From IMG/VR virus record IMGVR_UViG_2541047163_000016: a DNA stretch of 40,314 nt. One strand, written 5' to 3'. The notes under the pieces are model-generated. The model did not search any database and was not told the DNA's origin. It worked only from the letters and a program-made list of their open reading frames with translations. Made by a program: the position numbers and the translations under genes. Shown in pieces: positions 551 to 28,872 of this stretch. How positions within the stretch are numbered: the first letter of the stretch is position 1; every line of letters begins with the position of its first letter. The stretch is from a virus. Its lineage: Duplodnaviria > Heunggongvirae > Uroviricota > Caudoviricetes.

Positions 551-640
551 TGTATAGCGCGGCGATTTTTTTGATACCGATTTGCATTTCATTTGATACC
601 GCTGAAAAACGCCGATACGCAACTTATTTGATACTAAATC
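551..640. repeat. Right-end (mom-proximal) cluster of putative transposase-binding repeats
   Basis: TTTGATACC at 570-578 and 592-600, TTTGATACT at 627-635, within ~85 bp of the terminus, like clustered R1-R3 sites of Mu attR. Confidence 0.55.
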
Positions 641-680
641 GGCGCTTTTCTTTTGAGTTTTAGAATGAGTTTTTAAGCGC

Positions 681-1418
681 TCATTCACTCTCTTTCAAAC
701 CAGTTTTAACTGTTTGTGGTTTTGGGTAAGGCTGGACTTTGAATAGCTTTGTGTTGAGGCGTTTTCTGGCCCTCTTGTTCAGAAACCGGATGTAACGAAA
801 CTGTCGGAACTTATGAACACTGGCTCTGTCAATATTAGCCCTCAGATGTTCACCTCGTTGTCCGCCTCGTTTAATGGCATTCCTGCAAATCTCGTGATAC
901 CACTCGCCATCAAGTTCATAGAATATTGATTCATGGCTGCCTACATAATCAAAATTGCTTGCCTGATACACGACACCAAGACAGCCACAACGCTCATCTG
1001 CAAACGACTGAACCCACTGTACCTGCGGATAAAGCTGCCTGATTAGCTTGAGCGCGTAACTGATTGCCCTTGATTCGGAGTTTCTCGGCATACAGTCATG
1101 CAGCCATAGCCGGTTAAGCTCCATATATTCTCGGTTCTGCGTACCCGTTACGACGCGTGCACCACTGTTTGGGTTAAGGGCGTAACCCCATTGCATTACG
1201 CCAACAAGTTCCCGTTCTGAAAATATGCCCAGATGAAGGTAGGAGTTATTTACGAAACGGTGGCTGTAATGTTTATTGACGATGACCAGTCTGGCCAGCC
1301 AGCAACTTATTGTCTCAACCCGCAACTCACGGGAGCCATAACCAACGATATTGTCGTTATAGCGAATAAGTTCAGGCGTGCTGATGATTCGGGATGTGAC
1401 TTGCTTTCTGTTCCCCAC
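681..1418 (-). CDS. mom: Mom-like DNA modification protein (GTG start)
   Basis: 245-aa ORF just inside the right end, overlapping the 3' end of the com-like gene by ~47 nt as in Mu; start codon is GTG (plus-strand CAC at 1416-1418) with AAGGA upstream. Call rests on synteny, not recognised motifs. Confidence 0.55.
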
Positions 1419-1572
1419 GACAGGATTTCCTTGTGTATGTGGGGTGCTCTGTGGCGCTCGGAGATGTGATTTGATTGAGGGTTTTACAGCGCGGACATTT
1501 TACTTCCAGATAACTGAAACTGGCCCGTGCCAGTAGCTTATTGCAGTGTCGGCACCGTATGTTTCGATACAT
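1372..1572 (-). CDS. com: Com-like zinc-finger translational activator of mom
   Basis: ATG at 1572 preceded by AGGAGG; product [14 protein letters not shown]...VKCPRCK has the CxxC...CxxC pattern and spacing recalled for Mu Com (IRCKNCNKLL...IRCPRCK); overlaps the mom start. Confidence 0.75.
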
Positions 1573-1615
1573 GACCGCATAACCTCCTGCTTTGTTGTTG
1601 ATGCCTTTCTCATGC

Positions 1616-1640
1616 AATCGATCGACAAAAACGATCGATT
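1616..1640. promoter_or_regulatory. Inverted repeat AATCGATCG-N7-CGATCGATT carrying two GATC (Dam) sites, upstream of com/mom
   Basis: GATC at 1620-1623 and 1633-1636 inside 9-bp inverted-repeat arms, 45-65 bp upstream of the com start; Mu mom promoter is known to be controlled through Dam sites. Confidence 0.5.
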
Positions 1641-1686
1641 CGATTTGTTTAATTGATACAACAAATAGATTGAAAAGTCATCAACA

Positions 1687-2151
1687 ATGATTCAGGGAGG
1701 TGATTATTTACTTAAAGAAAACGAAGAGTTAGGTGGTGAAAACGATCATAAAATGATCATTTTATTGACTTTTTATACAGTGAAGGTAGGATCACGCGTA
1801 TATGTAGTATGTTTCAAATCAACAGGATACTACATAAAAGTGAAACCCAGCATAGCTGGAACTATGCTGGGTCAATCTGTAAAAACTTGCATCAATGCTT
1901 TACTTCGAGCTCGTGGCGTATCCTATGATATTCCCCGGTCTCCTGTAAAGCAGAGATGCATAAAAAGGAGATCTTTATCATGGATGAAAGAGCCTGTTTG
2001 CCCTGCCTGTAAGACTCCCTTACAGCTCATCTATCGCCGTTCTCGATCTCAAAATGGCAAGACATACAAACCCAAAAATGCTTCCTGTTTCAGGATGCTG
2101 ATATGTCCTGCCTGTTCTCCCAGGAGGGAAAATACACAAAACGTGCATTAA
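1687..2151 (+). CDS. Hypothetical protein with C-terminal C4 zinc ribbon; start uncertain (1687, 1753 or 1984)
   Basis: Only sizeable plus-strand ORF in the cargo region; C-terminus CPACKTPL...(29 aa)...CPAC; AAGGAG at 1965-1970 precedes the in-frame ATG at 1984 (55-aa product); converges on the hairpin at 2161-2180. AT-richer than surrounding phage DNA. Confidence 0.35.
   Translation: MIQGGDYLLKENEELGGENDHKMIILLTFYTVKVGSRVYVVCFKSTGYYIKVKPSIAGTMLGQSVKTCINALLRARGVSYDIPRSPVKQRCIKRRSLSWMKEPVCPACKTPLQLIYRRSRSQNGKTYKPKNASCFRMLICPACSPRRENTQNVH
1846..1871 (-). terminator. Perfect 10-bp stem hairpin followed on the minus strand by a U-rich tract
   Basis: CCCAGCATAG-ctggaa-CTATGCTGGG; minus-strand downstream sequence is TTTCACTTTTAT. 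Lies inside the long version of ORF 1687-2151, which argues for the shorter 1984 start. Confidence 0.35.
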
Positions 2152-2160
2152 CAAACTCAC

Positions 2161-2180
2161 CCGGCAGGGAAACCTGCCGG
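2161..2180. terminator. Hairpin between convergent genes
   Basis: CCGGCAGG-gaaa-CCTGCCGG (8-bp stem, GAAA loop) between the stop of 1687-2151 (+) and the stop of 2190-2435 (-), with moderately U-rich flanks on both strands. Confidence 0.5.
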
Positions 2181-2189
2181 TCGGTATTG

Positions 2190-2435
2190 TTACATCATAG
2201 TACCGTCAGTTCCGGGCTGAACCGGCTCTGGTTGCTCTACGGGTTGAGGATCATTTTCCGTGCTGTTTTCAGCCGGAGAACGGCCAACCATTCGGGCCAG
2301 CACTTCATCAACATATGCGTCGATTTGTGCCTCAAAATCCTTGCGAACCTGCGCCTTCAGCACGCGGTTCACTTCTTCAGAATAAAGTGCCTGTTTGACA
2401 AGCTCTTCAGTAACCGTGCCTTTAATCTCTGGCAT
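2190..2435 (-). CDS. Hypothetical small acidic protein (cargo region)
   Basis: 81-aa ORF with AAAGGAGA ribosome-binding site 6 nt upstream of the ATG; no recognisable domain. Confidence 0.6.
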   Translation of the reverse strand: MPEIKGTVTEELVKQALYSEEVNRVLKAQVRKDFEAQIDAYVDEVLARMVGRSPAENSTENDPQPVEQPEPVQPGTDGTMM

Positions 2436-2470
2436 GAATATTCTCCTTTTGCAGGTATATTGCCCCGTTA

Positions 2471-2653
2471 TCAGAGCGGGGTCGGGTCGTTTGGGGATGA
2501 CGGTGCCTGTGCTGTTTTACTGAGTTTTTCAGCTGCCGCATCATCAATTTTACGGCGAATATAATTTCTGATGACCTTATAACCACCGCTCACCAGATAT
2601 AACGCACTGACCACAGCGCAGAAATAAAGCAGCATTGTATGAACGAATGTCAT
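2471..2653 (-). CDS. Hypothetical small membrane protein (cargo region)
   Basis: 60-aa ORF, AAGGTAAGG upstream of ATG; one hydrophobic N-terminal segment (MLLYFCAVVSALYLVSGG) then a charged tail. Confidence 0.55.
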   Translation of the reverse strand: MTFVHTMLLYFCAVVSALYLVSGGYKVIRNYIRRKIDDAAAEKLSKTAQAPSSPNDPTPL

Positions 2654-2766
2654 ATAACCTTACCTTTGATATTGACTACATAATTCGTTATCGGGTAAAA
2701 ACATCGAAGCGACTGATAACCACTCCTTCGGGAGTATTTTTATTTTCCTTTATGGGTTAGGTAGCT

Positions 2767-2801
2767 CCCGCCAGCCATATCATGACCGGCGGGATTTTTT
2801 T
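2767..2801 (+). terminator. Hairpin plus T7 run, plus-strand orientation, abutting the 3' end of the esterase-like gene
   Basis: CCCGCC...GGCGGG stem followed by TTTTTTT on the plus strand; the T-run overlaps the TAA of the minus-strand gene 2800-4839. Would block antisense transcription entering that gene. Confidence 0.4.
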
Positions 2802-4839
2802 ATTCTGTTACCGCTTTTTTCACTTCCACCACAATGCTGTCAATCAGCACCGGGTAAGTTGCATTTTTTGTGATATCCGTTACGCGGAGTTTGTCCACCG
2901 GGAAAGTTCCTACTGGTGACTGCGTCAGGGTAAACGCGGCACCATCCTGACCATCAATAACCGGAATAACCTGAAGGCTGTTATTTCCTGCAAAACGGAA
3001 GGCCAGCGTATGCCATTCATTATCAAATGCACCAAAGGTTCCCAGTTTCTGGTTATTTGTTGCCACTTTTGCATTGTGGTACATCACATTCAGGTCTTTT
3101 GCGTCTGTCTGGATGTAGAACGATGCCAGCAGATTATTCCCTGCATCCCCTGTCAGGGTGACACCCTGCGGCAGAGAGGAAACCGGCCAGTAAAGCCCCA
3201 TGACATACTGGTTTGCCACCAGGTCGCCAGGTACTTTAAAACGACAACTGATTAAACCACCATTTTTCAGCAGTTCAGCACCAGTACCGGCATCATGATC
3301 CAGATACCAAGATGATTTACCTGTTTCCTTGGTCAGTTTCATTGCCTTACCACCTGTGCCTCCTGCATCACTGATAATTTCAGCTTTACCGCCAGCCGGC
3401 TCCCAGCCCTGGGCTTTCAGATTTCCTTCTGACTCACTGACACGATAAGACAGCAGTGTTGTGGTTACTGCTTCAGTTTCTGAAGGTGACGGCACTGGTG
3501 CTTCAGTTTCAGAAGATGGAACATCGGCTTTTACTGTGGTTCGCCCCGCATGAGTCAGAACTGCCGTGGCCAGACGGTCGGAAATAATCCCACGACGTGC
3601 CCATGAACTGAAATGGCTGGCCCGGTCCGCAGATGTCCAGGTGGCGGCACTGTTACGCCACGTTGAGCCGTAATAACCAATGGATTCAATATCCGGGTCT
3701 TCTGCCGGATTGTTGGTGGGTACATTCGCGTCATTTTCATCTGTCATTAATGGAACGAAATGAATGTTTTTATCTGTTTTGTTTTTGTAGCCGCCATAGA
3801 TTGCCTGGTATGCCGGTTCATTTTTCTGTTTCCAGAAATACGTGGTATCGCCACAAATCCACGGAACGCCAGCAGCACTGCCACCGGTACACTGTTCCGC
3901 CTGTTCAGCCAGGTCTGCGCGGAATTTTTCCACCATCGCCAGAAACAGCGCGGAATGCTCCGTCGGCTTCGCATCAATATCAAACTCGCCCTGCATCCAC
4001 ACCACAGCAAGCAGGCGGTTTTTCGGGTTCTTCGCCAGTGCCGCTTTTGTCCGGCTGATTAAGTCCTTATACAGCGGCTTATCCACACCCCAGCGGGCTG
4101 AGTCCTCTGAAGCACCCGTGCTGTCACTGTACGTGCCGTCAGCACCCGCCGTGAATGCAGAACCACCACGGCAGCAGGGAACCAGCAGAATCCCCGCATC
4201 TGCCGGAATAAACGGCAGCAGTTTTTTGGCAATGTGAAGCCCCTGACCCACGGTGCCATATTGCCCTTTAGCCACATCCGCTTTCGGGTGATTTTTTCCA
4301 CTCATATCCTGCACATCATGCAGACAGTGGTCGGCCAGAATGATGTCGTTATACTGACAGGCTTTACCTCCCGGCGTGACTGTACTGCGACGGGCTAACT
4401 GCATAATACGCGGTTCGGGGCGGTCATATGTCTCCGGCAGTGGCAGACCTTCACCGTAAGCCATACCGTTTGACTGACCAGCAAGAACCACCACGTAATA
4501 CCAGGAAGGGGAGCTGGAAGCAGTTTCATTTCCTGACGGACGGGTATGTGTTTCAGCATTATCCCAGTCTGACGGTTCAGCAGTACCGGCAACATCAGCA
4601 CTTAACGGAATGACCGCACCAATACCCGCTCCGGTAATTTCCACACTCGGATCACCGGATACTGGCCTTACCCACAGGCAATCCCGTGTATTAAAACTGA
4701 TGAGACAGTCAGCAAATGTCATTCCTCCTTTTGTTTCGGCCGGAGGAAAGGGAGCCTCAAGAAATGCCGCTGTACCACCGGAAACTTTAACAGTAAAGTT
4801 TCCGGGCATTGATGATAGTTGAACCCATTTGGACGTCAT
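2800..4839 (-). CDS. Large cargo protein: SASA/SGNH-type carbohydrate O-acetylesterase-like domain with C-terminal beta-sandwich/lectin-like region
   Basis: 679-aa ORF with verified ATG; motif VVLAGQSNGMAYG resembles the GQSN(M) nucleophile motif of sialate O-acetylesterase (SASA) family enzymes; serine/threonine/proline-rich linker (...SETEAPVPSPSETEA...) before a C-terminal ~250-aa domain. Not part of the canonical Mu gene set. Confidence 0.55.
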   Translation of the reverse strand: MTSKWVQLSSMPGNFTVKVSGGTAAFLEAPFPPAETKGGMTFADCLISFNTRDCLWVRPVSGDPSVEITGAGIGAVIPLSADVAGTAEPSDWDNAETHTRPSGNETASSSPSWYYVVVLAGQSNGMAYGEGLPLPETYDRPEPRIMQLARRSTVTPGGKACQYNDIILADHCLHDVQDMSGKNHPKADVAKGQYGTVGQGLHIAKKLLPFIPADAGILLVPCCRGGSAFTAGADGTYSDSTGASEDSARWGVDKPLYKDLISRTKAALAKNPKNRLLAVVWMQGEFDIDAKPTEHSALFLAMVEKFRADLAEQAEQCTGGSAAGVPWICGDTTYFWKQKNEPAYQAIYGGYKNKTDKNIHFVPLMTDENDANVPTNNPAEDPDIESIGYYGSTWRNSAATWTSADRASHFSSWARRGIISDRLATAVLTHAGRTTVKADVPSSETEAPVPSPSETEAVTTTLLSYRVSESEGNLKAQGWEPAGGKAEIISDAGGTGGKAMKLTKETGKSSWYLDHDAGTGAELLKNGGLISCRFKVPGDLVANQYVMGLYWPVSSLPQGVTLTGDAGNNLLASFYIQTDAKDLNVMYHNAKVATNNQKLGTFGAFDNEWHTLAFRFAGNNSLQVIPVIDGQDGAAFTLTQSPVGTFPVDKLRVTDITKNATYPVLIDSIVVEVKKAVTE

Positions 4840-4938
4840 AATAATCAGCCTGTTCCTGAATAAACTGAATTATCATATCCACAGACCGATAAACGCCATT
4901 TTGCGTTAATTCAGTAAAGGCCCAACAAAGGGAGCGTC

Positions 4939-5499
4939 TTATTTTTCCGAAACGCTCGCAGGATAATAACGATAAAGGGTTGAAAGGCCGATATCAAAAA
5001 TAAGTGCCACCTGTCTTCGACTGACACCCCCGGCCAGTAAACGCCCGACCTGCTCGTATTGTTCCTGCGTGAGACGACGGGGTCTGCCGCCGGTTCGTCC
5101 CCTTTCACGGGCAGCTGCAAGACCAGCCCGTGTCCGTTCGACAATTAATTCACGCTCCATTTCTGCCAGCGCACCCATTATGTGAAAAAAGAAGCGCCCC
5201 ATGGGGGTTGACGTATCAATGTTGTCAGTAAGACTACGAAAATTTATCCCCTGTTGCTGTAATTCATCTGTCAGCGCAACAAGGTGGCGCATACTGCGCC
5301 CCAGCCTGTCCAGTTTCCAGACCATCAGTGTGTCACCGGGTTTTAGTTTCTTCAGTGCCCGCTTCAGTCCCGGCCGCTGTGTCGTTTTACCACTCATTTT
5401 ATCTTCAAAAATCTGCTCACATCCTGCACATTCCAGCGCATTTCTTTGTAAACCTGTGTTCTGGTCATTTGTTGATACGCGTATATAGCCAATCAGCAT
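4939..5499 (-). CDS. gin: Gin/Hin/Pin/Cin-family serine DNA invertase
   Basis: MLIGYIRVSTNDQNT...VWKLDRLGRS...FFHIMGALAEMERELI... closely matches the recalled Mu Gin sequence; lies next to a gix-like site and the tail-fibre module. Confidence 0.92.
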   Translation of the reverse strand: MLIGYIRVSTNDQNTGLQRNALECAGCEQIFEDKMSGKTTQRPGLKRALKKLKPGDTLMVWKLDRLGRSMRHLVALTDELQQQGINFRSLTDNIDTSTPMGRFFFHIMGALAEMERELIVERTRAGLAAARERGRTGGRPRRLTQEQYEQVGRLLAGGVSRRQVALIFDIGLSTLYRYYPASVSEK

Positions 5500-5553
5500 G
5501 TATTTACCTTCCTTAAAAAGAGGTGGAAAGGCCTTTTAAAGCAGATATACGGC

Positions 5554-5579
5554 ATCCCTGAAACCTCGGTTTACGGGAT
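5554..5579. other. gix-like recombination site (gin-proximal)
   Basis: ATCCCTGAAACC-TC-GGTTTACGGGAT: 12+2+12 bp pseudo-palindrome resembling the Mu gix site TTATCCAAAACC-TC-GGTTTACAGGAA; lies in frame at the 5' edge of the silent tail-fibre cassette. Confidence 0.6.
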
Positions 5580-5924
5580 ACTGTAAACAGGGCCGCGAAT
5601 GCCCTGCCATCGAACGGAGCGGCTGTTGCAGCGAATAAACTCGCCACTCCAAGAAATATTAATGGTGTCCCATTTGACGGAACGCAGGATATAAATATTA
5701 CATCGGGGATGACGCAGTCTGTGGCTGACTCACGTTATGTTCAAAGCATTCGAAGAGGTTCAAGGTCAACGATTGGAATGCAATATAATATTTTTGAGGT
5801 TCCTGACGGATGCGTACTTACAGGGCTTGATGTCGCTGGTGATGGTAATGCAACGGTAACCGCATATTATCGACCTGTTCAGTTTCTGATAGATGGTTCG
5901 TGGAAAACAGCTTCCAGCGCATAA
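5562..5924 (+). other. Promoterless alternative tail-fibre C-terminal cassette (S'v-like)
   Basis: In-frame from the stop at 5559-5561: GLRDTVNRAANALPS...ATPRNINGVPFDGTQDINITSGMTQSVADSRYVQ... parallels residues 178-240 of the expressed tail fibre and then diverges; ends ...YYRPVQFLIDGSWKTASSA. Confidence 0.6.
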
Positions 5925-6003
5925 AAGTGCAGTAGTTCAAAAAACAGATTATCTGAATAAATATATGATGATTTTGTCTTTTCAACAAAAACAAGGTGAA
6001 ATA

Positions 6004-6525
6004 ATGGAGCTTATTAACGTAAAACGATATTACCCGGAACACAAACCCTATGGTGAGGATGTTCAGTATTTCCAGAGTGAGGACGGAAGGGATTTTTATG
6101 AATCTATCCCGCTTTTCACAAAGAAATACAAACTCTGTATTTCGCCTGTAACGGGTATTATCTGCTCTGTTGCTGAAGATGTCTCTGCTTTATATCCGGC
6201 AGGTTTTACTGTTGTTGAAGTGGACGAACTGCCGGAAGGTGTGAATATTGACGGTAACTGGCAGTTTTCTGATGGCCTGATATCAAAGGTGCCGGTAAAC
6301 TGGAAGACGGTTGCTGAAAAGCGCCGCTCATCGCTGCTCCAGGAAGCCAACGAAACTGTGGATGACTGGAAAACGGAATTAAAACTGGACATGATTAGCG
6401 ATGAAAATAAATTACAGCTGACGCGCTGGATGGCGTATATCCGACAGCTTAAAGAAATGCACTTTAATGATATTGCCAGTGAGGGGCATTACCAGGCGAT
6501 TCCCTGGCCGGAAAAACCGGAATAA
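6004..6525 (+). CDS. Tail fibre assembly protein (U'-like), belonging to the silent cassette
   Basis: 173-aa product from the ATG at 6004 (AAGGTGA upstream); size, position after a fibre C-terminus and ...HYQAIPWPEKPE ending fit tail-fibre assembly (Tfa/U) proteins. Alternative start at 5965. Confidence 0.65.
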   Translation: MELINVKRYYPEHKPYGEDVQYFQSEDGRDFYESIPLFTKKYKLCISPVTGIICSVAEDVSALYPAGFTVVEVDELPEGVNIDGNWQFSDGLISKVPVNWKTVAEKRRSSLLQEANETVDDWKTELKLDMISDENKLQLTRWMAYIRQLKEMHFNDIASEGHYQAIPWPEKPE

Positions 6526-6530
6526 TTCAG

Positions 6531-6555
6531 AGGGTGCATTCAGCACCCTTTTCTG
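6531..6555. terminator. Bidirectional hairpin terminator between convergent tail fibre and U' genes
   Basis: AGGGTGC-attca-GCACCCT followed by TTTCTG on plus and preceded by an A-rich tract; sits between stop 6523-6525 (+) and stop 6560-6562 (-). Confidence 0.6.
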
Positions 6556-6559
6556 TGGT

Positions 6560-7471
6560 TTACACTGAACTTACCGTTCTCCAGGCATTATTAATATAAA
6601 TCTGAACCGGGCGATAATAGACCCCACCGATATTGTCCGCAGACCGGGAGCCGGTTTCCTGCACGTTAATTCCGGAAAGCATACAACCGGAAGGTGCGCT
6701 GTAATTCCATGACATTTCATTGCCTCCGGGTGAATGATAGCTCTGTGCTCCAAGCTGAACATTCTGTACATACCGGCCATCTGCGGTTGACTGCGTCATT
6801 CCTGACGTGATGTTGATATCCAGCGTTCCGTCAAAAGGAACACCATTAATATTTCTTGGGGTGGCGAGTCTGTTTGCTGCCACGGCGGTTCCACCCGATG
6901 GCAGGGCATCAGCAGCCTTATTTACCGTTTCCCGTAAACCAACGTTATCGATAAAAGCGCCTTTATCCGGAATGTCTGCGCCGTTCTGCTCCCTGCGCAG
7001 GTAACGGTTATCACCTTCGCTTTTGCTGTAAACATCCAGATTATTACGGGCGGTTCCCGCATTCTCCAGGTCGGCAAGGTTCTGATCCTTCGCCAGAGCA
7101 TTAACGTCACCGGGACCAAGACTGTTTTTTGTGGCAAGCGCCCCAAGACCAAGATAACCACGGGCAAGACGCTGGGCTTCCGCACCGGCATCAGCAATTT
7201 CTTTCAGGTTGTTTTTCCGGGAAAAGGCATTCGCAGCGATAATGGCTTTAATGGACAGCGTAAGCTGGTTTAACTGCGCCTTATCCGGCTGAATACTGGC
7301 TTCAGCCAGAATATTCAGCAGTTCGGCCTGGAGAATATTCAGCCAGTCCTGACCAATCCAGCTGATACCTTTTTGTCCGTCACCTTCGGTAAACCAGGTG
7401 GTGGTATTACTCTGCGCCGGTGCCAGCGCAGGCATATTCGCCACGCCGGAATTATTATCAACATGAAACAT
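6560..7471 (-). CDS. Tail fibre protein (S-like), currently expressed variant
   Basis: ATG at 7471 overlaps the upstream stop (TAATG) and is preceded by GAGGAG; C-terminal ~127 aa parallels the silent cassette; ends ...GGVYYRPVQIYINNAWRTVSSV. The ORF-track start at 7525 lies inside the upstream gene. Confidence 0.75.
   Translation of the reverse strand: MFHVDNNSGVANMPALAPAQSNTTTWFTEGDGQKGISWIGQDWLNILQAELLNILAEASIQPDKAQLNQLTLSIKAIIAANAFSRKNNLKEIADAGAEAQRLARGYLGLGALATKNSLGPGDVNALAKDQNLADLENAGTARNNLDVYSKSEGDNRYLRREQNGADIPDKGAFIDNVGLRETVNKAADALPSGGTAVAANRLATPRNINGVPFDGTLDINITSGMTQSTADGRYVQNVQLGAQSYHSPGGNEMSWNYSAPSGCMLSGINVQETGSRSADNIGGVYYRPVQIYINNAWRTVSSV
6929..6954. other. gix-like recombination site inside the tail fibre gene
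   Basis: Read on the minus strand: TTATCGATAACG-TT-GGTTTACGGGAA (10/12 and 11/12 matches to the Mu gix half-sites); encodes FIDNVGLRE at tail-fibre residues 173-181, exactly where homology with the silent cassette begins. Confidence 0.5.
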
Positions 7472-17393: not shown

Positions 17394-17954
17394 TTACAGT
17401 TCCTCCGGCGGTTCGACCGCCGTTGTCGTGTTCCCCGGCAAATCAATATGTGCCTCAAACGGCGGCGTACCGGGCGGCTCCACAAAGGTTTCGTAATGAC
17501 GCAGGAAGTCGTCCAGCGAGCTGGTATCGGTCAGCGGTGCGATCATTTCCTCGCAGGAGAAATAAAGCGCATACATCACCGCACCACTGTCCGCCTGGGT
17601 TTCGGTGTAACCGTTGACCGCCTTTTCAAAGTAAAGCGGTGAGGTTTTTTCTGTTCTGAAGCCGTTAAGCACGGCAATCAGCCGGGCCACAATCTGATAC
17701 AGTCCGGGACGGCTGGCCTCACGCCCGTTGAGCATGTCGCCGATGACGTAGAACACCCAGTGACTGACCAGGCGACCACGGGTACGGCCTTCACCGGCAC
17801 CCAGCCAGGCAACGTAGATCGCCGGGGCGTTAATCAGCATGGTGCGCAGTACGCTGTCGCTCCAGTCGCCGGGATGCGTGTCAACAGACACCAGTTCATT
17901 CCCGAAATACTCACGGATACGGGCGATGTATGCCTGTTCGGTTTCCGTAATCAT
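17394..17954 (-). CDS. Head-tail region protein (Mu gp37-like)
   Basis: 186-aa ORF in conserved position between head and tail genes. Confidence 0.55.
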   Translation of the reverse strand: MITETEQAYIARIREYFGNELVSVDTHPGDWSDSVLRTMLINAPAIYVAWLGAGEGRTRGRLVSHWVFYVIGDMLNGREASRPGLYQIVARLIAVLNGFRTEKTSPLYFEKAVNGYTETQADSGAVMYALYFSCEEMIAPLTDTSSLDDFLRHYETFVEPPGTPPFEAHIDLPGNTTTAVEPPEEL

Positions 17955-18370
17955 ATGAAGCCCTTCTGGTTGCGCCCGAATACCGCTGCATCAGACTGAA
18001 CCTGTGGTAAATCCCCGGATTCAGGGGCCGCACCGTTCGTATCCACACCGACCGGCACATTGCCGTTCATGACATCTTTCAGCCAGGCCAGCGCTTCACG
18101 GTAACGGTCACGCGCCTGATCGGAGGCTCGCTGATCGCACAGGTAATAAAAGGCAATCGCGCAACAGTGCTGAACAAGAACGGCCGGAATAACCTCCAGC
18201 GGCAACGTGTAACGGGCGGACAGATAGCTGTCGATAAGGGCTGACGCATCTGTCAGCGCCCGGTTCAGCTTGCGCGTGTCCGGCTCATCCGAACGGGGCA
18301 CAGCCAGTAACGGCCTGAGCAAATCCTCGCGGTAACGCGCCCGCATATCGGTTTCAGTGGCGTAATTCAT
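17951..18370 (-). CDS. Head-tail connector-region protein (Mu gp36-like)
   Basis: 139-aa ORF; start codon verified at 18370. Confidence 0.55.
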   Translation of the reverse strand: MNYATETDMRARYREDLLRPLLAVPRSDEPDTRKLNRALTDASALIDSYLSARYTLPLEVIPAVLVQHCCAIAFYYLCDQRASDQARDRYREALAWLKDVMNGNVPVGVDTNGAAPESGDLPQVQSDAAVFGRNQKGFI

Positions 18371-18783
18371 GCACGGGCCTGTTCCGCTTTGTTACCGGTC
18401 TTTTTCCGGGGAGCATCCTGTCCGGCTTCGGCTTCGGCTTCGGCTTCGGCTTCGGCTTCGGCTTCGGCTTCGGCTTCGGCTTCGGCTTCGGCTTCGGCTT
18501 CGGCTAAATCTGTACCGGCCACTGCATGAACCACACCCGCCACGCTCCCCGCATCATCAGCAGACGTCTGTAGTATTCGCACAGTGAGGCATGGCTCCTC
18601 CTCCAGTCGGGCAAGCTGCTCCGGGGTGACCTCAACCTGCTGACGTCCACGCGTGAACAGGAACCCCGCACGACGAAACGCCGAACGACTGCAACGCACT
18701 TCTGCCAGCACCGTGACAGAATTGTCACCACTGACCTGAAGACCTGAATCATCTGTTGCTGCCACAGTGTGATGTTCATTCAT
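18367..18783 (-). CDS. Head-region protein with internal (Ala-Glu)14 repeat
   Basis: 138-aa ORF just downstream of the major head gene; residues ~95-122 are AEAEAE... encoded by the hexanucleotide array. Confidence 0.6.
   Translation of the reverse strand: MNEHHTVAATDDSGLQVSGDNSVTVLAEVRCSRSAFRRAGFLFTRGRQQVEVTPEQLARLEEEPCLTVRILQTSADDAGSVAGVVHAVAGTDLAEAEAEAEAEAEAEAEAEAEAEAEAEAGQDAPRKKTGNKAEQARA
18423..18505. repeat. Hexanucleotide tandem repeat (CGGCTT)13-14
   Basis: 13 perfect CGGCTT units plus one imperfect unit; in-frame (GAA-GCC = Glu-Ala) within gene 18367-18783. Confidence 0.9.
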
Positions 18784-18826
18784 ATTTGCCCTCCGCAGGG
18801 GCCGGGCCGTAAGCCCGGCTCACCGT

Positions 18827-19774
18827 TTACAGATAATCCGCGACAACCAGCTCCAGCTTACCCTTCATCTCGTTAGAGACGGTTGCGTTTCCGTCTGCGA
18901 ACAGTTCACGCTCCAGCAGCTGCACCGCCTGTTTTTCCAGCGAGGTGGGGACAACAATATGGGTGGGTTTAATGCCGAGTTTGCGGCCACCGTCAGCGGT
19001 AAATTCGCGCATGGCTGACCAGCCGTGCCACAGTGCATCCAGCGTCAGCGGTGACTGCATCATGTAGGCCATCTGCCAGAAGCCGTAGCCCACATTGCGA
19101 CGGGCGGATGCACCAAACACAAATTCGTTATCGGTGAATGCGCGACCTTCATCGACTTTGGTCTGGGCAACCAGTTCAGCCTTACGGCGATCCTGATAAA
19201 TCAGCGGTTTTACCGCGCGGGAGCAGTCAAGCAGATACCAGGCCGGACCGCTGTAATCAGCCTGTGCGCCGACAGAGCCGGTTTTTGCCACAAACATATT
19301 GCTGACCATCTGCGCATCCCCGGAGCCATCCACTTTGGGGTAAACCGGATGTTCGGTATCAAAGAAGTTCTGACCGTCATAGCAGGCCGCACTGATCCCG
19401 TCACGCAGGGCAGCAAAGACCAGCTCATCCGGTTGTACCGCCGCAGCGCGCCCCATCTCCTGGAACAACGGGGAATAAATACCGAGGTTGTCGTCTTCGA
19501 AGTCATCGCGGCTAATGGCGACAGTGCCTTCAAAAGTTTTGTTCACGATGGCATAGCCATAGGCTTTCATCTTCTCGATGACGCGGGAGCCGATCCACTC
19601 ACGGAACTGCGGGAACTGCCCCAGCCAGCCGTAGGTGTTGGATTTCGATGTGGAGGGCACGGTCATCGCAATTTTTTTATACTGCGACGGGGCCATGGAC
19701 ATCCCGGCCTGAAAATCAGAACGGTAGCCCGTCATCAGGGCTGTGATCATCGCCGGTGTAATCGGGGTAGGCAT
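18827..19774 (-). CDS. Major head (capsid) protein, Mu T-like
   Basis: 315-aa ORF following the I-like gene with TAATG stop/start overlap. Confidence 0.8.
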   Translation of the reverse strand: MPTPITPAMITALMTGYRSDFQAGMSMAPSQYKKIAMTVPSTSKSNTYGWLGQFPQFREWIGSRVIEKMKAYGYAIVNKTFEGTVAISRDDFEDDNLGIYSPLFQEMGRAAAVQPDELVFAALRDGISAACYDGQNFFDTEHPVYPKVDGSGDAQMVSNMFVAKTGSVGAQADYSGPAWYLLDCSRAVKPLIYQDRRKAELVAQTKVDEGRAFTDNEFVFGASARRNVGYGFWQMAYMMQSPLTLDALWHGWSAMREFTADGGRKLGIKPTHIVVPTSLEKQAVQLLERELFADGNATVSNEMKGKLELVVADYL

Positions 19775-20898
19775 TATTGCATTTCCTCTTTCATTTTCAG
19801 GAACTCGGCTTCGGTTTTACCCAGCAGTTTGGCGGCCGCGATATCTTCAGCCGACAGCGCAGCGGTGGCAGTCTTTTTATCCGGCACGGTCACGGTGTCG
19901 GTCTGAAGAGAGGTCAGGGCCGCAACCGGCTGGCGGGCGTCAAGCTGTGCAGAAAGTGCCGCAACGCCAATCTGCCCGCCCAGTTGTTCCAGATAGCCGC
20001 GTTCGCTTTTGAAGATGCGCCCTTCGGATTCAGCCTTGTCCAGCACCTGCTCCAGCGTGGTGCTGCCGTGCTGCGCCGACAGCGCAACGTATTCGGTACG
20101 CAGGGCGTTATACGTTTCAACGGGCACGTATTTCGTCAGATCAATAATGCCGCCAGCCGGTGTGCCTTTTGCGGTTTCCAGCTCTGCCGACAGACTGGCG
20201 ACCTGTGTTTTCAGGTTGTCGTGTGCATCCGCACGGGTTTTGATCCCGGTGAGGGCAGACAGCGCCGCCGTGCCCAGCTCCGGCGTAAATTCGTCACCGT
20301 CAGCCACGGTCAGACCGAGCGCCGTCAGCAACTGGCGTAATTGCTCATTCATGGAGGTATCCTTTAAAGGAGGGTTTAAGGCGTTATAAAGGTCATCCGC
20401 CGACAGCGCGGCGACAGGATTCATGCCGGTCAGACCGGGGTCACCGGTAATAGCCAGCATCCGAAGTTCGACAGGTTCGCCGGTGTTCTCGTCATAGCCA
20501 ATCACCGGTGAAAACCAGGGGAATTCGTTATTACGCAGATGTTCAAGGGCCGGAGGGTTCCACTTCGGGCGCACCTCGAAGCCACGCTCTTCACTGAAGC
20601 GAAAATTCTCCGGTGAGGCCATCACAAAACCGGCAGCCGGTGCCTGATGCCCCTTAATCAGGGTCTGGTGGTTGTAGTCAATTTTCACCGGCTGATTGAG
20701 CGCCACAACCCGGGATACCATGCGCTCAACGGTCGCACGGTTAATCAGCCAGCCCTCGGCCGGTTTTTCCGGGCGACCGTCACGGGCCTTTACCCGACCG
20801 GCTGGCATGATCTGACACCAGTCACCGTCCCCGTCTGCGGACAGGCTGATGGCATTCAGAATGGCATAAGCAAGTTTGGGCGTGTTTTTCGTCTTCAT
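19774..20898 (-). CDS. Head protease/scaffold protein, Mu I-like
   Basis: 374-aa ORF; first gene after a 175-bp intergenic region, as for the Mu I operon. Confidence 0.75.
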   Translation of the reverse strand: MKTKNTPKLAYAILNAISLSADGDGDWCQIMPAGRVKARDGRPEKPAEGWLINRATVERMVSRVVALNQPVKIDYNHQTLIKGHQAPAAGFVMASPENFRFSEERGFEVRPKWNPPALEHLRNNEFPWFSPVIGYDENTGEPVELRMLAITGDPGLTGMNPVAALSADDLYNALNPPLKDTSMNEQLRQLLTALGLTVADGDEFTPELGTAALSALTGIKTRADAHDNLKTQVASLSAELETAKGTPAGGIIDLTKYVPVETYNALRTEYVALSAQHGSTTLEQVLDKAESEGRIFKSERGYLEQLGGQIGVAALSAQLDARQPVAALTSLQTDTVTVPDKKTATAALSAEDIAAAKLLGKTEAEFLKMKEEMQ

Positions 20899-21044
20899 TC
20901 CGGCAGCATAAGCCGGGAATTTTCAGGGCGGGTTTTGCGGGATTTCAGGAAGTGCTTCCAGGGGAAAAATACAAAGGCGCTTCACGCAGATTTTAAAGCC
21001 CGTTAAATACAGGTTAGAAAATCACGACACGCGCCTGAAGGGGG

Positions 21045-21069
21045 TAAGGTAATGCATTTGCATACCTTA
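21045..21069. promoter_or_regulatory. 25-bp near-palindrome in the intergenic region upstream of the I-like gene
   Basis: TAAGGTAATGCATTTGCATACCTTA: outer 6-7 bp arms plus inner ATGC/GCAT pairs; begins 6 nt after the G-like stop; no U-tract follows on either strand. Confidence 0.3.
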
Positions 21070-21074
21070 AACAA

Positions 21075-21548
21075 TTAAGGCGTTTCTGTGGCCTTTTTAA
21101 AGCGTTTTCTGATTTCGTCCATGATCTCCTGCTCTGCCACCTGATCAAAGCCCATATACGGGCGTGCGCCAATGGCCGCCGGTCCCGGTGGCATACCAGG
21201 CAGGCCACCCCACTGATGAATGGCCGCATAAGGCTCATTTGATCCAATCAGCGCCCAGGTATCGCCATAATCCGTGGTCAGGCGTCGGGCCAGATCGCCG
21301 TTCAGCGTCAGGATTTTGCCGGGCATGTATCCCTTACGGGTACGCCACTTGCGGTAAGGATCTGACCAGTCATGCCAGCGTTCGCCGTCCGGCTCTTTTT
21401 CCTGTTCAAACGCCATTTCTGACGATGACAGAAGACTCGCCGCCACACTGCGGGCCAGGTCTTTCCCTCCACCCACAAACTGAAGCCGGGCAAAGACCCG
21501 CTGGAGACGCGTAACGTCAACAACGACAGCGGCATCAATGGATGACAT
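21075..21548 (-). CDS. Virion morphogenesis protein, Mu G-like
   Basis: 157-aa ORF between the F-like and I-like genes. Confidence 0.65.
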   Translation of the reverse strand: MSSIDAAVVVDVTRLQRVFARLQFVGGGKDLARSVAASLLSSSEMAFEQEKEPDGERWHDWSDPYRKWRTRKGYMPGKILTLNGDLARRLTTDYGDTWALIGSNEPYAAIHQWGGLPGMPPGPAAIGARPYMGFDQVAEQEIMDEIRKRFKKATETP

Positions 21549-21669
21549 ATTGCCTCCGCATAAAGGATGAATATAAAATAAACAGGCGGTCAGTGTACGC
21601 TTAACTGGTAAAGTCGGTGCCTGCCTCCGGGTGGATCATGTATGCGGGTTCAACCCCCGCCACTGACCG

Positions 21670-23001
21670 TTAATCAATATCTCCTTCCAGTACCTCAAGC
21701 ATTCCACCCCGGATATCCGATTTCAGCTTATCCATATTGATAACCCGGTAAGCATTCACAATCACATCCAGTTTATCCGGCTGACGCTTCAGGCTGTACG
21801 GCGCATTAACGGCAATCTGCACACTGCTATCCTTACTTTCCACGATATACATCAGATTGTTGTGGCGTTTGTCCCACAGCACCGCTTTTGGCTTTGCCAG
21901 CATTGCCGGTAATCGACCGAAATCCTCCGGCGTCAGGGCGATACCGTCATTCTGATGTTTCATGCTGTCCGCATGGAGCACATTTTTACCGCTCATCGCC
22001 AGCAGGCGGGCCGGTGGCGTTCCCGTCCGGCTTTCCACCGCCTGCGCAATGCTTTCGGTCATAAAGCCCAGCGTGCGGATATCGTTACCGCCTCGCCGGG
22101 TTTTCATGATGTTTTTTGCCCAGATGCGGAACGCCAGCTGCCGCTCCGGGCTGTTGTTCATCTCCTGCACTACCATTTCCCGCAGCGCCGGGCTTTTCAC
22201 CTCGATCAGTTTACGGATCAACGCCTGGTCTGTGCCGAACGCCGCCGAGCCGGGGTTATATGACCAGCCCACATCCGGTGTCATGGTTCTGGTGCCATCT
22301 GAATATGTGGTCACCGGCATTTCTCTGACTTCTCCGGTCTGCTTATCCACGCCAGCCTCAACATTGCGGGTGGAAAGATGATCCTGACCGGATGAAACGG
22401 ATAACCCCATTGCATCCAGACGGGTCTGAGACAATGGCCGGACACGGCAGCGGCAGTTCCAGCCATTGGGTGGGTAGTGTGTATTCCAGAACGGATCGTC
22501 ATAGCGGAATACCTGCCCGTTAAGGGCGGAATGCGCCGGGCGGGTGCGGCTGTCCATCACCGCCACATACTGCCAGAACGGATGCGTGTCCGTGTTGTTC
22601 ATCATCTGCGTGTAACGCCCGGCATTGTAAGCCACGCGGGTGTTCACGTTGTAAATCAGCGCCAGACGGCGGGGACTGCCCAGTTGCACTTCTTCTGCGT
22701 TACCGGCGCTGTCCACCACAATCTGCTTTCCCCACCATCCCAGCTTTTGCAGGCGGGGTGTCAGTGTGCGGATAAATGCTTTCTGTGAAATCCCCTCATC
22801 AACAGCACGCTGCACTTCCGCCTGTAGTGTGGTCAGTACGTCCAGGCGTGCCACTTTTGCCGCCGTGAATGAACGGGCATGAACATCCGCGTCTGTTTCG
22901 AACCAGTTCCAGCTGATATGCGCCCCTTTGGCGCGGAAGTATGCCACCGCCTCTTTTGAGGGAAGCGTGGCGGCATAACCTAAATCAATCCCCTGTGCCA
23001 T
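21670..23001 (-). CDS. Head morphogenesis protein, Mu F-like (gp30)
   Basis: 443-aa ORF directly after the portal gene. Confidence 0.75.
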   Translation of the reverse strand: MAQGIDLGYAATLPSKEAVAYFRAKGAHISWNWFETDADVHARSFTAAKVARLDVLTTLQAEVQRAVDEGISQKAFIRTLTPRLQKLGWWGKQIVVDSAGNAEEVQLGSPRRLALIYNVNTRVAYNAGRYTQMMNNTDTHPFWQYVAVMDSRTRPAHSALNGQVFRYDDPFWNTHYPPNGWNCRCRVRPLSQTRLDAMGLSVSSGQDHLSTRNVEAGVDKQTGEVREMPVTTYSDGTRTMTPDVGWSYNPGSAAFGTDQALIRKLIEVKSPALREMVVQEMNNSPERQLAFRIWAKNIMKTRRGGNDIRTLGFMTESIAQAVESRTGTPPARLLAMSGKNVLHADSMKHQNDGIALTPEDFGRLPAMLAKPKAVLWDKRHNNLMYIVESKDSSVQIAVNAPYSLKRQPDKLDVIVNAYRVINMDKLKSDIRGGMLEVLEGDID

Positions 23002-24583
23002 CCAGCATCCCCTTCATTTCCGCAGCAAACATGGCATCACTGAGCAGCGTCATCAGGCGGGAATCATCCATTTCACGGTAAAGGGCAGGCAGGTCTGCCA
23101 GTGCCTCCGCCAGCCCCCGCGTTCTGATGGCTTCAATGACCGGCTCCAGTACCGGGTCGATGGCCTCCTGTAACCGGCGGGCAGGCACCGCATCCCCCAT
23201 GTCGTCCAGTTCATCTCGGGGGCTGCTCTTCGCTTCCGGCAGTCTGGCAGCCAGCGCTGTCTGCTCTGTCTTCTCCTGTTTTTCCGGTGGCATCTCTTTG
23301 TCTGTCTGAGCAGGTTCATTGCCACTCTGACGGACACGGAAGATGGCTTCACCGGGGGCAGGCTGTGGAATACCGGTCTGCTCCCGCACCCAGGGATCAG
23401 GAATATCCATCCCCGTACTGAGCTGCATCACCGCACTGGTGATTTTGGTGATATCCCCCGGCTCTTTTGTCTGGAAACAGATACGCGGCAGGCGACGGAT
23501 ATCAATGGCGTGGGCGGTGTTCAGGGCATACAGCGGATACACCAGATCGCGGTTCAGCGTGGCGGCCAGCTGACGTAAATCAGAATCCCTGATTTCCCGG
23601 CGCACCTCGTTATGCACTTCACCCAGCGAACGTGCGCCCTTGTCTCCGGCTTCCGTGGTCAGCGTGCCGCCGAGGATAGCTTTGGAGATGGAACGCTCCC
23701 CCCACGAAATCATGGTTTCAAACGGATCGGCCTGACCGTTCGCTGCCGCCTGAAACTCCAGCGACATCCCGGCCGGGATGATCCCGCCTGTACGTCGCCC
23801 GATATCCATCACCGCCCGCATCAGGGCGCTTTTCTGCTCCGGTGTTGCCCCGGACGGGTATTTACCGACCTTCATCGGCAGGCCGTACACCTCCAGAAAT
23901 TCAGCCAGATCGCGCACGGAATAGTTTTTGAAAATGAACGGCCAGATAAGCGTTCTGACAAGCCCCGTCGCACCACCGTAGCCAGTGCGTGAACGCGACT
24001 GATGCACTATCCAGCCAAAGGGCTGAAACGCCACCCCGGCATGGCTGCCGTCACGCAGCCGCAGTTCGCTCAAATCATCCGGGTTAAGGCAGAAATGCCC
24101 GCTGTCACGCCAGCGGATGGCGCGGATGATGTGCATTTTACCGAGCATCCCGTGCTCAATCTCCATGCAGGAATAGCCTTTCAGGATGGCATCGGTGGCA
24201 TCAAACAGCATGGCATCAAACCAGTCGGCGGAATGCAGGTATTCGTCGAGCATTTCCGCGTCCTTTTTCTCATTCGCGCTGGCGTTCGGGGGCGGCTCAA
24301 TACTCCAGGGCACCCCCTGAATGGCAAGACGTCGCTTGCCCAGCTCTGCAAAAAGATGGGTATCCTTTTCTTCAATGTCAGCGGCCAGATCGGACTGGGC
24401 AATCAGATCGCCACGTTCAGCCCCGCGAAGGCACTGTGCCGCCCGGTTCGGGGTGATACCCGAGGCCGGATGTTCAATATAACGGCTGGCAATCTGCGGA
24501 ATATCCAGCACGGCACTCTGCATCTCCGGGTCAAAGGAGAAAGGTTTTCCGTCAAGATCAATTATGCGTCCCACTACCAGCAC
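22985..24583 (-). CDS. Portal protein (Mu gp29-like)
   Basis: 532-aa ORF directly after the terminase large subunit gene; GTG start. Confidence 0.8.
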   Translation of the reverse strand: MLVVGRIIDLDGKPFSFDPEMQSAVLDIPQIASRYIEHPASGITPNRAAQCLRGAERGDLIAQSDLAADIEEKDTHLFAELGKRRLAIQGVPWSIEPPPNASANEKKDAEMLDEYLHSADWFDAMLFDATDAILKGYSCMEIEHGMLGKMHIIRAIRWRDSGHFCLNPDDLSELRLRDGSHAGVAFQPFGWIVHQSRSRTGYGGATGLVRTLIWPFIFKNYSVRDLAEFLEVYGLPMKVGKYPSGATPEQKSALMRAVMDIGRRTGGIIPAGMSLEFQAAANGQADPFETMISWGERSISKAILGGTLTTEAGDKGARSLGEVHNEVRREIRDSDLRQLAATLNRDLVYPLYALNTAHAIDIRRLPRICFQTKEPGDITKITSAVMQLSTGMDIPDPWVREQTGIPQPAPGEAIFRVRQSGNEPAQTDKEMPPEKQEKTEQTALAARLPEAKSSPRDELDDMGDAVPARRLQEAIDPVLEPVIEAIRTRGLAEALADLPALYREMDDSRLMTLLSDAMFAAEMKGMLDGTGD

Positions 24584-26819: not shown

Positions 26820-26821
26820 CG

Positions 26822-27625: not shown

Positions 27626-27635
27626 ACCTTTTTCC

Positions 27636-28236: not shown

Positions 28237-28300
28237 AGGACACCCCGTAACAGCAGTACCGCACACAGCAGCGCTATCATGAGCGGTCGCCAGAAGCGGT

Positions 28301-28801: not shown

Positions 28802-28802
28802 T

Positions 28803-28840: not shown

Positions 28841-28872
28841 GGTGAAGGAGAGGCGGCAGGCTTTGCGGAATA

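Follow-up and report, generated by a model that had tools for sequence, protein, structure and literature searches.

A Dam-site palindrome upstream of com–mom in a Mu-like prophage is probably the core of an OxyR-type operator

The com–mom module of the Mu-like prophage analysed here is preceded by a palindrome carrying two Dam sites, which is probably the core of an operator whose binding by the host LysR-type regulator OxyR is sensitive to Dam methylation. That the site is a Dam-sensitive operator for a host repressor, with the principle known from phage Mu retained, had been proposed in the first-pass annotation of this DNA, and its conservation and its sequence likeness to Mu and agn43 make this very probable. 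The palindrome system is a variant of the known OxyR-type control of Mu and agn43, and existing knowledge is not overturned by it. To our knowledge, Dam/OxyR control of Mu mom, a textbook case, is known from one phage only. The prophage studied here, an EHEC prophage found in more than 200 complete E. coli genomes, is a natural two-site, promoter-proximal variant that could serve to test the number of methylation sites needed for OxyR discrimination and possible phase variation of mom expression, the latter question being unanswered even for Mu (PMC2909390). The literature on Sp18 of EHEC O157 Sakai, a published Mu-like prophage of the same host group, and on STEC methylomes yielded nothing on mom regulation.

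The com–mom module and its prophage setting

The window, that is, the whole 40,314-nucleotide stretch that was analysed, contains a Mu-like prophage (553..39868) of a kind typical of EHEC strains. Its com–mom module comprises the following features:

681-1418, minus strand: mom, GTG start, predicted from Pfam, Mu Mom and PDB matches to encode a Gly-tRNA(Gly)-dependent adenine N6-carbamoylmethyl transferase
1372-1572, minus strand: com, predicted zinc-ribbon translational activator of mom (Pfam, identity to Mu Com, PGAP)
1583-1587, minus strand: com Shine-Dalgarno sequence GGAGG, read from the sequence and kept in all lineage variants
1413-1444, minus strand: mom start hairpin CCCCAC...GUGGGG, with the GUG start (1418-1416) sequestered and the Shine-Dalgarno sequence in the loop

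The mom product matches the Pfam Mom family PF25680 over its full length (4e-77, profile positions 1-202 of 202), shares 76% identity with Mu Mom, and is matched by PDB 8bv8, a solved Mom structure (E 4.5e-124, residues 5-233). The crystallised Mom is an S124A variant, S124 being the catalytic serine of Mu Mom, and activity requires S124 together with an HTH-like insertion at Mu ~175-209 (PMC13219725). In an ungapped alignment to 8bv8, S116 of the window Mom lies opposite the alanine of the S124A variant, and the region of the HTH-like insertion aligns with no gaps. Moreover, S116 is invariant across 24 Mom homologues.

The com product matches Pfam Zn_ribbon_Com (1.9e-12), is 47% identical to Mu Com and carries a CxxC-N16-CxxC arrangement (C7, C10, C27 and C30); PGAP annotates an identical 66-aa com CDS. 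The mom start hairpin is the minimum-free-energy fold of 1395-1480 (minus strand), its Mu equivalent, CCCAC...GUGGG, also folds, and the motif is present in every Enterobacterales com–mom locus listed. The Pfam matches, the Mom identity, the conserved start hairpin and a 47-nt overlap of com and mom together bear out the Mu-like arrangement that had been read from the sequence beforehand. Both genes are intact in 235 E. coli records, of which 209 are near full length.

Further upstream, the module is preceded by a hairpin:

1844-1873, minus (com/mom) strand: intrinsic-terminator-like hairpin, from scan and fold

Its stem consists of 13 bp with 6 GC pairs (dG -21.5 kcal/mol, z -6.76). On the com/mom strand the scan gives the tail as TCACTTTTAT, the sequence after the stem is UUUCACUUUUAU and the U tract is UCACUUUUAU, and no T tract follows the hairpin on the plus strand. 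The hairpin earlier placed at 1846-1871 is thus real, terminator-like and on the correct strand, and it lies 272 nt upstream of the module.

A conserved Dam-site palindrome precedes com

The region immediately upstream of com contains two nested features:

1616-1640, unstranded: palindrome AATCGATCG-N7-CGATCGATT, whose Dam sites occupy 1620-1623 and 1633-1636, from sequence and counts
1616-1667, minus strand: conserved control block of the window-type lineage, whose 52 nt vary in 4 columns across 15 distinct sequences

The palindrome has 9-bp arms around the N7 spacer ACAAAAA, and its GATCs begin at 1620 and at 1633, a spacing of 13 bp. The palindrome and this spacing agree with the first-pass annotation, while the distance to the com ATG (1572) becomes 44-68 nt instead of 45-65. 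Within the 40 kb, AATCGATC and GATCGATT occur once each; GATC-N9-GATC has a single occurrence in the window and a single one in the entire Mu genome, each of them before com. The chance of one GATC pair 13 bp apart somewhere in 40 kb is ~1/3; a lone pair being so common, the case rests on position, extended arms and conservation. The palindrome exceeds chance. An Rfam search of 400-3000 returned no meaningful matches.

The exact sequence AATCGATC-N9-GATCGATT is present in 60 viral contigs, and com adjoins it in 52 of them. Across 80 Mom loci retrieved by protein, the density of GATC-N9-GATC is 2.19/kb upstream of com versus 0.031/kb elsewhere, a difference of ~70-fold, and the motif lies upstream in 60 of the best 80 viral Mom loci. 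The remaining 20 were classed as having no such motif; among the 14 distinct upstream sequences listed from that group, 11 have a palindromic GATC-N14-GATC followed by N9-CATC, one (L223) has a non-palindromic GATC-N14-GATC, and two (L222 and L224) have no GATC pair. No GATC pairs were found upstream of com in Desulfovibrio, alphaproteobacterial or Pseudomonas loci, and no clusters of GANTC (CcrM), sought as a parallel to GATC, upstream of com in the alphaproteobacterial loci.

Within the window-type lineage, the GATC-N9-GATC core GATCGTTTTTGTCGATC is identical in all 26 loci retrieved by Mom protein, and the outer right arm varies in a single column, in one variant. The DNA upstream of 1667, the boundary of the control block, is replaced in E. 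coli M3, and the next 15 nt after the block (1601-1615) are hypervariable. The GATCs at 1744, 1755 and 1790, considered as a counterpart of the Mu sites, were rejected as non-conserved filler that is likewise replaced in M3. Furthermore, the GATC-to-ATG distance is 51-54 nt in four sequence-divergent lineages in which the intervening sequence is quite different, and across lineages the two GATCs and their spacing are invariant, while arms and spacer vary. The sequence identity, conservation and position of the site are direct observations. By sequence comparison, the GATC-N9-GATC core is a conserved hallmark of the mom control regions of Enterobacterales Mu-like phages, whose lineages, on the same comparison, retain differing subsets of three GATC sites at differing promoter distances.

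The palindrome as the core of a predicted OxyR operator

As reported in PMC7549136 (citing Sun and Hattman 1996) and PMC3378877, the Mu mom gene has three GATC sites in a 43-bp upstream region, and Dam methylation prevents OxyR binding there. When unmethylated, these Mu sites are bound by OxyR/MomR. The 23-bp core of the window, ATCGATCG-N7-CGATCGAT, is identical at 21/23 positions to the agn43 (flu) core, ATCGATCGTTTATATCGATCGAT. The palindrome is predicted to form part of a larger operator:

1621-1657, minus strand: predicted full OxyR-type operator ATCAATTAAACAAAT - CGAATCG - ATCGTTTTTGTCGAT, two half-sites 22 bp apart

The predicted half-sites are 15-mers, ATCAATTAAACAAAT at 1657-1643 and ATCGTTTTTGTCGAT at 1635-1621, with 6/10 and 7/10 matches to ATAGnTnnnAnCTAT, plain match counts that are modest in absolute terms. 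A 1-nt shift of the upstream frame lowers these counts to 2-3/10. The same scoring at the same 22-bp phase gives 6 and 7 for Mu mom, and 6 and 8 for agn43.

In the mechanism that we propose, the inner 15-mer ATCGTTTTTGTCGAT, which carries both GATCs, would be the site of one OxyR dimer, and ATCAATTAAACAAAT, 22 bp upstream, that of a partner dimer. When the GATCs are unmethylated or hemimethylated, OxyR would bind and prevent com–mom transcription, and full Dam methylation would exclude it. The operator probably overlaps the core promoter, in which case repression would be by direct occlusion of RNA polymerase. Translation of mom would still need Com, predicted to unfold the hairpin in which the GUG start is hidden. 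If the -10 element is [C/T]ATCA[A/T] at 1603-1598, the GATCs would lie at about -46/-33, the geometry of the P22 gtr repressing site. OxyR binding and its sensitivity to methylation, like the promoter location and any need for a phage activator, are what we infer. Against the operator reading, the site lacks the distal GATC found in Mu and agn43, and an AATCG duplication displaces the upstream half-site relative to Mu.

Candidate promoters and the phage activator

Two putative promoters and one activator gene are relevant to where com–mom transcription might start:

1653-1681, minus strand: candidate promoter A, with a putative -35 ATGACT (1681-1676), a 17-nt spacer and a putative -10 TATCAA (1658-1653)
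1598-1628, minus strand: candidate promoter B, with a putative -35 TTGTCG (1628-1623), a 19-nt spacer and a putative -10 CATCAA (1603-1598)
28873-29298, minus strand: Mor/C-family late-activator homologue, the sole one in the prophage (tblastn, 39% to Mu C, E 4e-28; 26% to Mor)

The com–mom promoter is not placeable from sequence. In a scan of the com strand for consensus sigma-70 promoters none passed the threshold, promoter A included, and the PWM cannot decide the matter because it also misses the genuine Mu Pmom. Promoter B has the top PWM score in the variants L153 and L157 (8.9); it is weak in the window, where its -10 is poor, and in sister variants this -10 reads TATCAT. In the sister lineages L060 and L170-172, strong -10 hexamers follow the second GATC at a distance of 7-9 nt. 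Promoter A has the best PWM score in the window, 5.3, a weak value slightly above that of promoter B there.

It is possible, though unlikely, that the OxyR/Dam logic is kept with transcription starting upstream, at promoter A, in which case the palindrome would lie at about +6 to +31 and act as a roadblock past the start, as in agn43. The rank of promoter A in the window itself fits this arrangement, as do the survival of the ATGAC of its -35 in the diverged upstream sequence of E. coli M3 and the precedent of agn43, whose operator is transcribed, given that the 5' end of the annotated leader RNA (IsrC) coincides with GATC-I. However, the -10 of promoter A lacks the near-invariant final T, and its -35 falls outside the conserved module, which ends at 1667. 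Moreover, ATCAAT recurs in the distal half of the operator in Mu, agn43 and L171, which argues for an operator element and not a -10, and the strong -10 hexamers of the sister lineages lie downstream of the GATC pair.

With respect to activation, neither TTAT-N6-ATAA, the Mu-type C box, on the com strand nor CATAAC near com was found, and the phage's own presumed late-promoter motif, common to the lys and I promoters, was not found near com either. The C box of Mu itself (TTATGCCCCAATAA), its ACCACA -35, its T6 run and its TAAGAT -10 are all absent in the window, and the 43-nt stretch from the palindrome toward the com start is unrelated to Mu. An extension of the occlusion mechanism, which we regard as improbable, is that in the window lineage and in L060 and L170-172 the operator has shifted onto the core promoter, with loss of the phage-activator box, and that com–mom is gated mainly by Dam/OxyR competition, as agn43 and gtr are. 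If this were true, heritable ON/OFF (phase-variable) expression of Mom from the resident prophage could follow, with some lysogens having carbamoylmethylated DNA and pre-protected progeny phage, and others avoiding Mom toxicity.

Aligned on the com start, the palindrome sits at the position of the Mu C box and -35, and its first description as a palindrome where the mom promoter should be was in one sense apt. The same alignment on the com ATG (Mu +1 from PMC3378877), the dyad symmetry, which fits a dimer, and the lack of any other visible activator box near com would suit a site for a dimeric phage regulator, for example the Mor/C-family activator encoded at 28873-29298, with the GATCs incidental. 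We consider this very unlikely, since Mu shares the palindrome and yet its mapped C site lies downstream of it: PvuI cuts the first two GATC sites of Mu, and purified C binds only the fragment downstream (PMC3378877). The 21/23 identity is, furthermore, to a chromosomal, non-phage operator; it is the GATCs and their spacing that are invariant across lineages, not the arms or the spacer; and the lys/I promoter motif is unrelated to the palindrome.

The missing Mu elements and the failure to detect a consensus promoter could also be read as the outcome of a 27-bp deletion that took the C box and promoter of Mu, leaving com–mom silent or expressed by read-through only, and the palindrome as a non-functional relic that persists by recency. 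This is highly improbable, given that hundreds of genomes keep both genes intact, that block 1616-1667 is conserved beside a hypervariable stretch, and that the 51-54 nt geometry between operator and ATG is kept despite the different intervening sequence. The terminator 272 nt upstream also argues against reliance on read-through.

Finally, it is extremely unlikely that the palindrome acts as RNA, either as a 9-bp com-leader hairpin affecting stability or translation or as an antisense terminator, even though the predicted fold of 1573-1645 (minus strand) contains the hairpin and the scan flags it as terminator-like on the plus strand (tail CGATTTGTTT): the leader hairpin was rejected on a fold z of only -1.45 and on the lineage comparison, in which GATC-N9-GATC is kept with non-complementary flanking arms (L069 and L172) and no compensatory change breaks a GATC, and the plus-strand terminator on its weak, A/U-rich stem with 4 GC pairs, on the lack of anything obvious to terminate, and on conservation that favours the GATCs over pairing. 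Were promoter B right, the site would moreover be untranscribed.

Comparison with Mu, agn43 and P22 gtr

Mu and the window prophage have the same host, and their downstream genes are alike, with com overlapping mom and a hairpin at the start codon. The palindrome AATCGATC-N9-GATCGATT, with the same 13-bp spacing, is also found in Mu (L002 2174-2198), where it comprises GATC sites 2 and 3. In both it is preceded by the same ATCAATTAA, a sequence that forms the end of gin in Mu and survives as a remnant in the window. The same palindrome after the same sequence indicates that the site was inherited from a common ancestor with Mu. The first-pass annotation had attributed to the window a different, more symmetric architecture; this does not hold, because Mu itself has the palindrome with the same spacing. 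The arms are 9 bp here versus 8 bp in Mu, and the spacer sequence differs.

The site has two GATCs in the window and three in Mu, the distal one being missing here: its position reads AATT, the nearest relative being TATC, 22 nt upstream. In the window the palindrome lies 27 bp closer to the com ATG than in Mu, at 43 nt as against 70 nt. In Mu, gin adjoins the com region; in the window the two are separated by an inserted 3.3-kb cargo. The loss of the distal GATC, the shorter distance, and the missing C box and Pmom core had been overlooked in the earlier annotation. The phage resembles Mu in encoding a C homologue, and its candidate promoter resembles Pmom in a poor -35 and a 19-bp spacer, whereas the window lacks a C box and shows no similarity to Pmom.

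The agn43 regulatory region is arranged as GATC-N15-GATC-N9-GATC. The OxyR site there is overlapped by all three GATCs, and OxyR is blocked when they are methylated (PMC13337833; PMC2909390). The third GATC, 19 bp upstream, has no counterpart in the window, while ATCAAT in the distal half is common to both. In agn43 the operator comes immediately after the transcription start, and the system governs a chromosomal adhesin and is known to phase-vary.

P22 gtr has GATC pairs with a 13-bp spacing, each pair inside a single OxyR half-site and the repressing one at -46/-33; these half-site pairs indicate that two GATCs can suffice (PMC2909390). OxyR takes either of two alternative positions at the three half-sites of P22 gtr, activating in one and repressing in the other, whereas a single predicted two-half-site operator is visible in the window. 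P22 gtr and the predicted operator of the window both have a 13-bp GATC pair in one OxyR half-site and a GATC-free partner half-site, and, if promoter B is right, the GATC positions of the window relative to the start would be those of P22 gtr.

Identification of a Mu-like com/mom module and an inherited palindrome

The module and its upstream region comprise the following features:

681-1418, - strand: mom
1372-1572, - strand: com
1616-1640: palindrome AATCGATCG-ACAAAAA-CGATCGATT, with GATC at 1620 and 1633
1844-1873, com/mom strand (-): strong terminator-like hairpin, dG -21.5 kcal/mol, z -6.8

The first-pass annotation had proposed a Mu-like com/mom module, and this assignment holds: com gave a Pfam match at 1.9e-12 and mom at 4e-77, and the mom product, 76% identical to Mu Mom, gave an ungapped alignment with the solved Mom structure 8bv8 (E 4.5e-124), in which the catalytic serine is retained (PMC13219725). 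In the predicted fold, as in Mu, a CCCCAC/GUGGGG hairpin sequesters the GUG start of mom. The hairpin and the two-GATC palindrome previously noticed upstream of the module were both confirmed, the latter lying 44-68 nt upstream of the com ATG (1572). However, the earlier description of the palindrome architecture as "different, more symmetric" is not supported: the Mu sequence directly 5' of the mom promoter, GATCGAATCAATTAAATCGATCGGTAATACAGATCGATT, contains AATCGATC-N9-GATCGATT, with arms and a 13-bp GATC spacing equal to those of the window, and the core of the E. coli agn43 region (ATCGATCGTTTATATCGATCGAT) matches the window (ATCGATCGTTTTTGTCGATCGAT) at 21 of 23 positions. Moreover, ATCAATTAA is found upstream of the palindrome in both phages, at a distance of 1 nt in Mu and 10 nt in the window. 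In Mu it constitutes the end of gin, final codons plus stop; the window retains it as a remnant, since gin has come to lie 3.3 kb distant, beyond a cargo of Stx-phage-type genes. On sequence comparison, the window palindrome is inherited, not new.

Genomic context of the module

The Mu-like prophage (553..39868) lies in reverse orientation between copies of a 5-bp duplication, AAATG (548-552 and 39869-39873), and Mu proteins are collinear with it from B and the C-terminal part of A (~35.5-36.9 kb, adjoined by a 696-aa ORF at 36505-38595) to gin (4939-5499), com and mom. Its insertion point is the loop of a terminator hairpin, GGCGCC-AGAAAT-GGCGCC-T6. The surrounding DNA (1-550 and 39910-40314) carries a lambdoid J tail gene on one side and a putative lom on the other; the ORF after J looks like lom from its N-terminal signal peptide and its position. 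This is one prophage inserted within another. The same right end is shared by 235 records of complete E. coli genomes, mostly EHEC O157, O111 and O121, in which it occupies many different places on the chromosome. Unlike Mu, the window carries additional genes between gin and com:

2190-4839, - strand: gin–com cargo, 3.3 kb, encoding a SASA/DUF6645 sialate-esterase-like protein (679 aa), DUF1378 and DUF826
1668-2190: variable filler separating DUF826 from the com control block

Genes of the three cargo families occur in Stx/lambdoid phages. PGAP annotates a 154-aa ORF in the filler (1687-2151, +); a CPAC...CPAC zinc ribbon makes up its C-terminal 56 aa. In E. coli M3 this position is taken by an 86-aa ORF unrelated to it. 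Three more GATC sites are present in the filler (1744, 1755 and 1790), the last within the -10 of a promoter-like site, TTGACT-16-TAGGAT (1765-1792, +).

Conservation of the GATC arrangement

An exact-pattern scan of viral contigs yielded 60 loci, 52 of them with com adjoining the pattern; they form two types by palindrome-to-ATG distance, the Mu type (70 nt) and the window type (43 nt). Among the 80 best Mom loci, a sample unbiased regarding the palindrome because it was retrieved by protein, GATC-N9-GATC was found upstream in 60, including all 26 window-type loci, and was missing from 20. Among 14 distinct upstream sequences listed from the latter group, 11 had a palindromic CGATCGATA-N6-TATCGATCG, that is, GATC-N14-GATC followed by N9-CATC; one locus (L223) had a non-palindromic GATC-N14-GATC, and two (L222 and L224) had no GATC pair. 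GATC-N14-GATC-N9-CATC is the same three-site skeleton with a degenerate third site. The density of GATC-N9-GATC was 2.19/kb in the control stretch versus 0.031/kb elsewhere, and the Mu genome, like the window, has it just once. Sequences of the window-type lineage hardly vary at 1616-1667 and are hypervariable at 1601-1615, and past 1667 E. coli M3 has unrelated sequence instead. In species-representative genomes, GATC-(N14/15/27)-GATC-N9-GATC was located upstream of com or mom in Edwardsiella, Symbiopectobacterium, Pantoea, Apirhabdus and other Enterobacteriaceae; no such arrangement was detected upstream of com in Desulfovibrio, alphaproteobacterial or Pseudomonas loci.

A third Enterobacterales mom lineage (L177, L184, L185, L200, L204, L206-L208, L210, L214, L215, L218 and L220) has CGATCGATA-N6-TATCGATCG as its sole pair, and after a further N9 the third site reads CATC, not GATC. 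The CATC mutations introduced in experiments at gtr (PMC2909390) have a natural counterpart here.

Other com/mom control regions

Mom loci outside Enterobacterales (L082-L139, L130, L135, L072-L074 and L224, from Desulfovibrionaceae, Azospirillum and other Rhodospirillaceae, Pseudomonas and Neptunomonas) lacked a GATC pair in front of com and had in its place a GC-rich multi-hairpin element of 120-150 nt (e.g. L109:2001-2165 and L085:2106-2270). Several helices of this element show compensatory base changes; a long-range helix, GCCCC...GGGGC, closes it, and GCCTATCA is conserved past the last hairpin. It matched no Rfam family and may represent a cis-regulatory RNA of the com–mom operon that has yet to be described. 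Yersinia/Serratia-type mom loci (L075-L079 and L120) have neither com nor GATC clusters, and a different conserved structured leader lies ~130 nt before the mom start (z -3.5 for L077). At a further locus, L060:2950-3320 (-), a com homologue (68% identical) has the same operator with three GATC and an extended -10, TGGTATCAT; it precedes a non-mom ORF whose N-terminus, judged by eye, looks DNA methyltransferase-like, comparable to Mu-like prophages with methyltransferases in place of mom (PMC3299994).

Predicted promoter position relative to the palindrome

In Mu, +1 lies 22 nt ahead of the com ATG, as placed via the published -58..+20 promoter fragment (PMC4461284; PMC3378877), so that the Mu palindrome spans ~ -73..-49, upstream of the C box and -35. 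The palindrome-to-ATG gap in the window is only 43 nt, and with a leader similar to that of Mu the palindrome would cover ~ -46..-22. None of the Mu elements (C box, ACCACA, T6 run, TAAGAT) is present in the com upstream region of the window. The phage has a sole Mor/C homologue:

28873-29298: Mor/C homologue, 39% identical to C

The upstream regions of its lys and I homologues share CTGAWATYCCGCAAARCCYGCC (22 nt; 20927-20948 and 28855-28876, -; chance expectation 0), which is probably part of late promoters recognised by the C homologue; in Mu, lys and I similarly have a match of 10 bp (PMC4461284). No match to this motif was found near com.

In a sigma-70 scan of the com/mom strand no site passed, and two weak candidates were compared:

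1628-1598, - strand: candidate B, overlapping the palindrome, TTGTCG-19-[C/T]ATCA[A/T]
1681-1653, - strand: candidate A, upstream of the palindrome, ATGACT-17-TATCAA

Candidate B lies wholly within the conserved module and is the top-scoring match in sister variants with TATCAT; in L060 and L170-172, strong -10 hexamers occur 7-9 nt past the second GATC, with the GATC-to-ATG distance fixed at 51-54 nt. It would place the GATCs at ~ -46 and -33, the same positions as in gtr. With candidate A the operator would fall just past the start site, as at agn43, but its -10 is without the key final T and its -35 falls outside the conserved block. We favour candidate B as the probable com–mom promoter, candidate A being considerably less likely. 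An occupied operator would block transcription under either. Both the promoter position and any dependence on a phage activator are what we infer from these sequence features.

Likeness to OxyR/Dam operators

The E. coli K-12 agn43 regulatory region reads GATC-N15-GATC-N9-GATC. Scored against the standard OxyR dimer site, ATAGnTnnnAnCTAT (printed as ATAGxTxxxAxCATAT in PMC2909390), the inner 15-mer matched at 7/10 positions in both the window and Mu, and at 8/10 in agn43. Exactly 22 bp upstream, all three have another 15-mer that scored 6/10, a value that fell to 2-3/10 when the frame was moved by one base. At agn43, the OxyR site is overlapped by three GATC and repression is blocked by methylation (PMC13337833); at P22 gtr, GATC pairs with 13 bp spacing are each contained in a single OxyR half-site, and binding is lost on methylation (PMC2909390). 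In Mu, OxyR can no longer bind once Dam has methylated three GATC located in a 43-bp stretch (PMC7549136 citing Sun and Hattman 1996; PMC3378877). By analogy, OxyR would bind the window palindrome and methylation would affect this binding. The principle originally put forward, in which a host repressor controls mom in a Dam-sensitive manner, is well supported by homology. The window site is a promoter-proximal form of this known operator, with two GATC.
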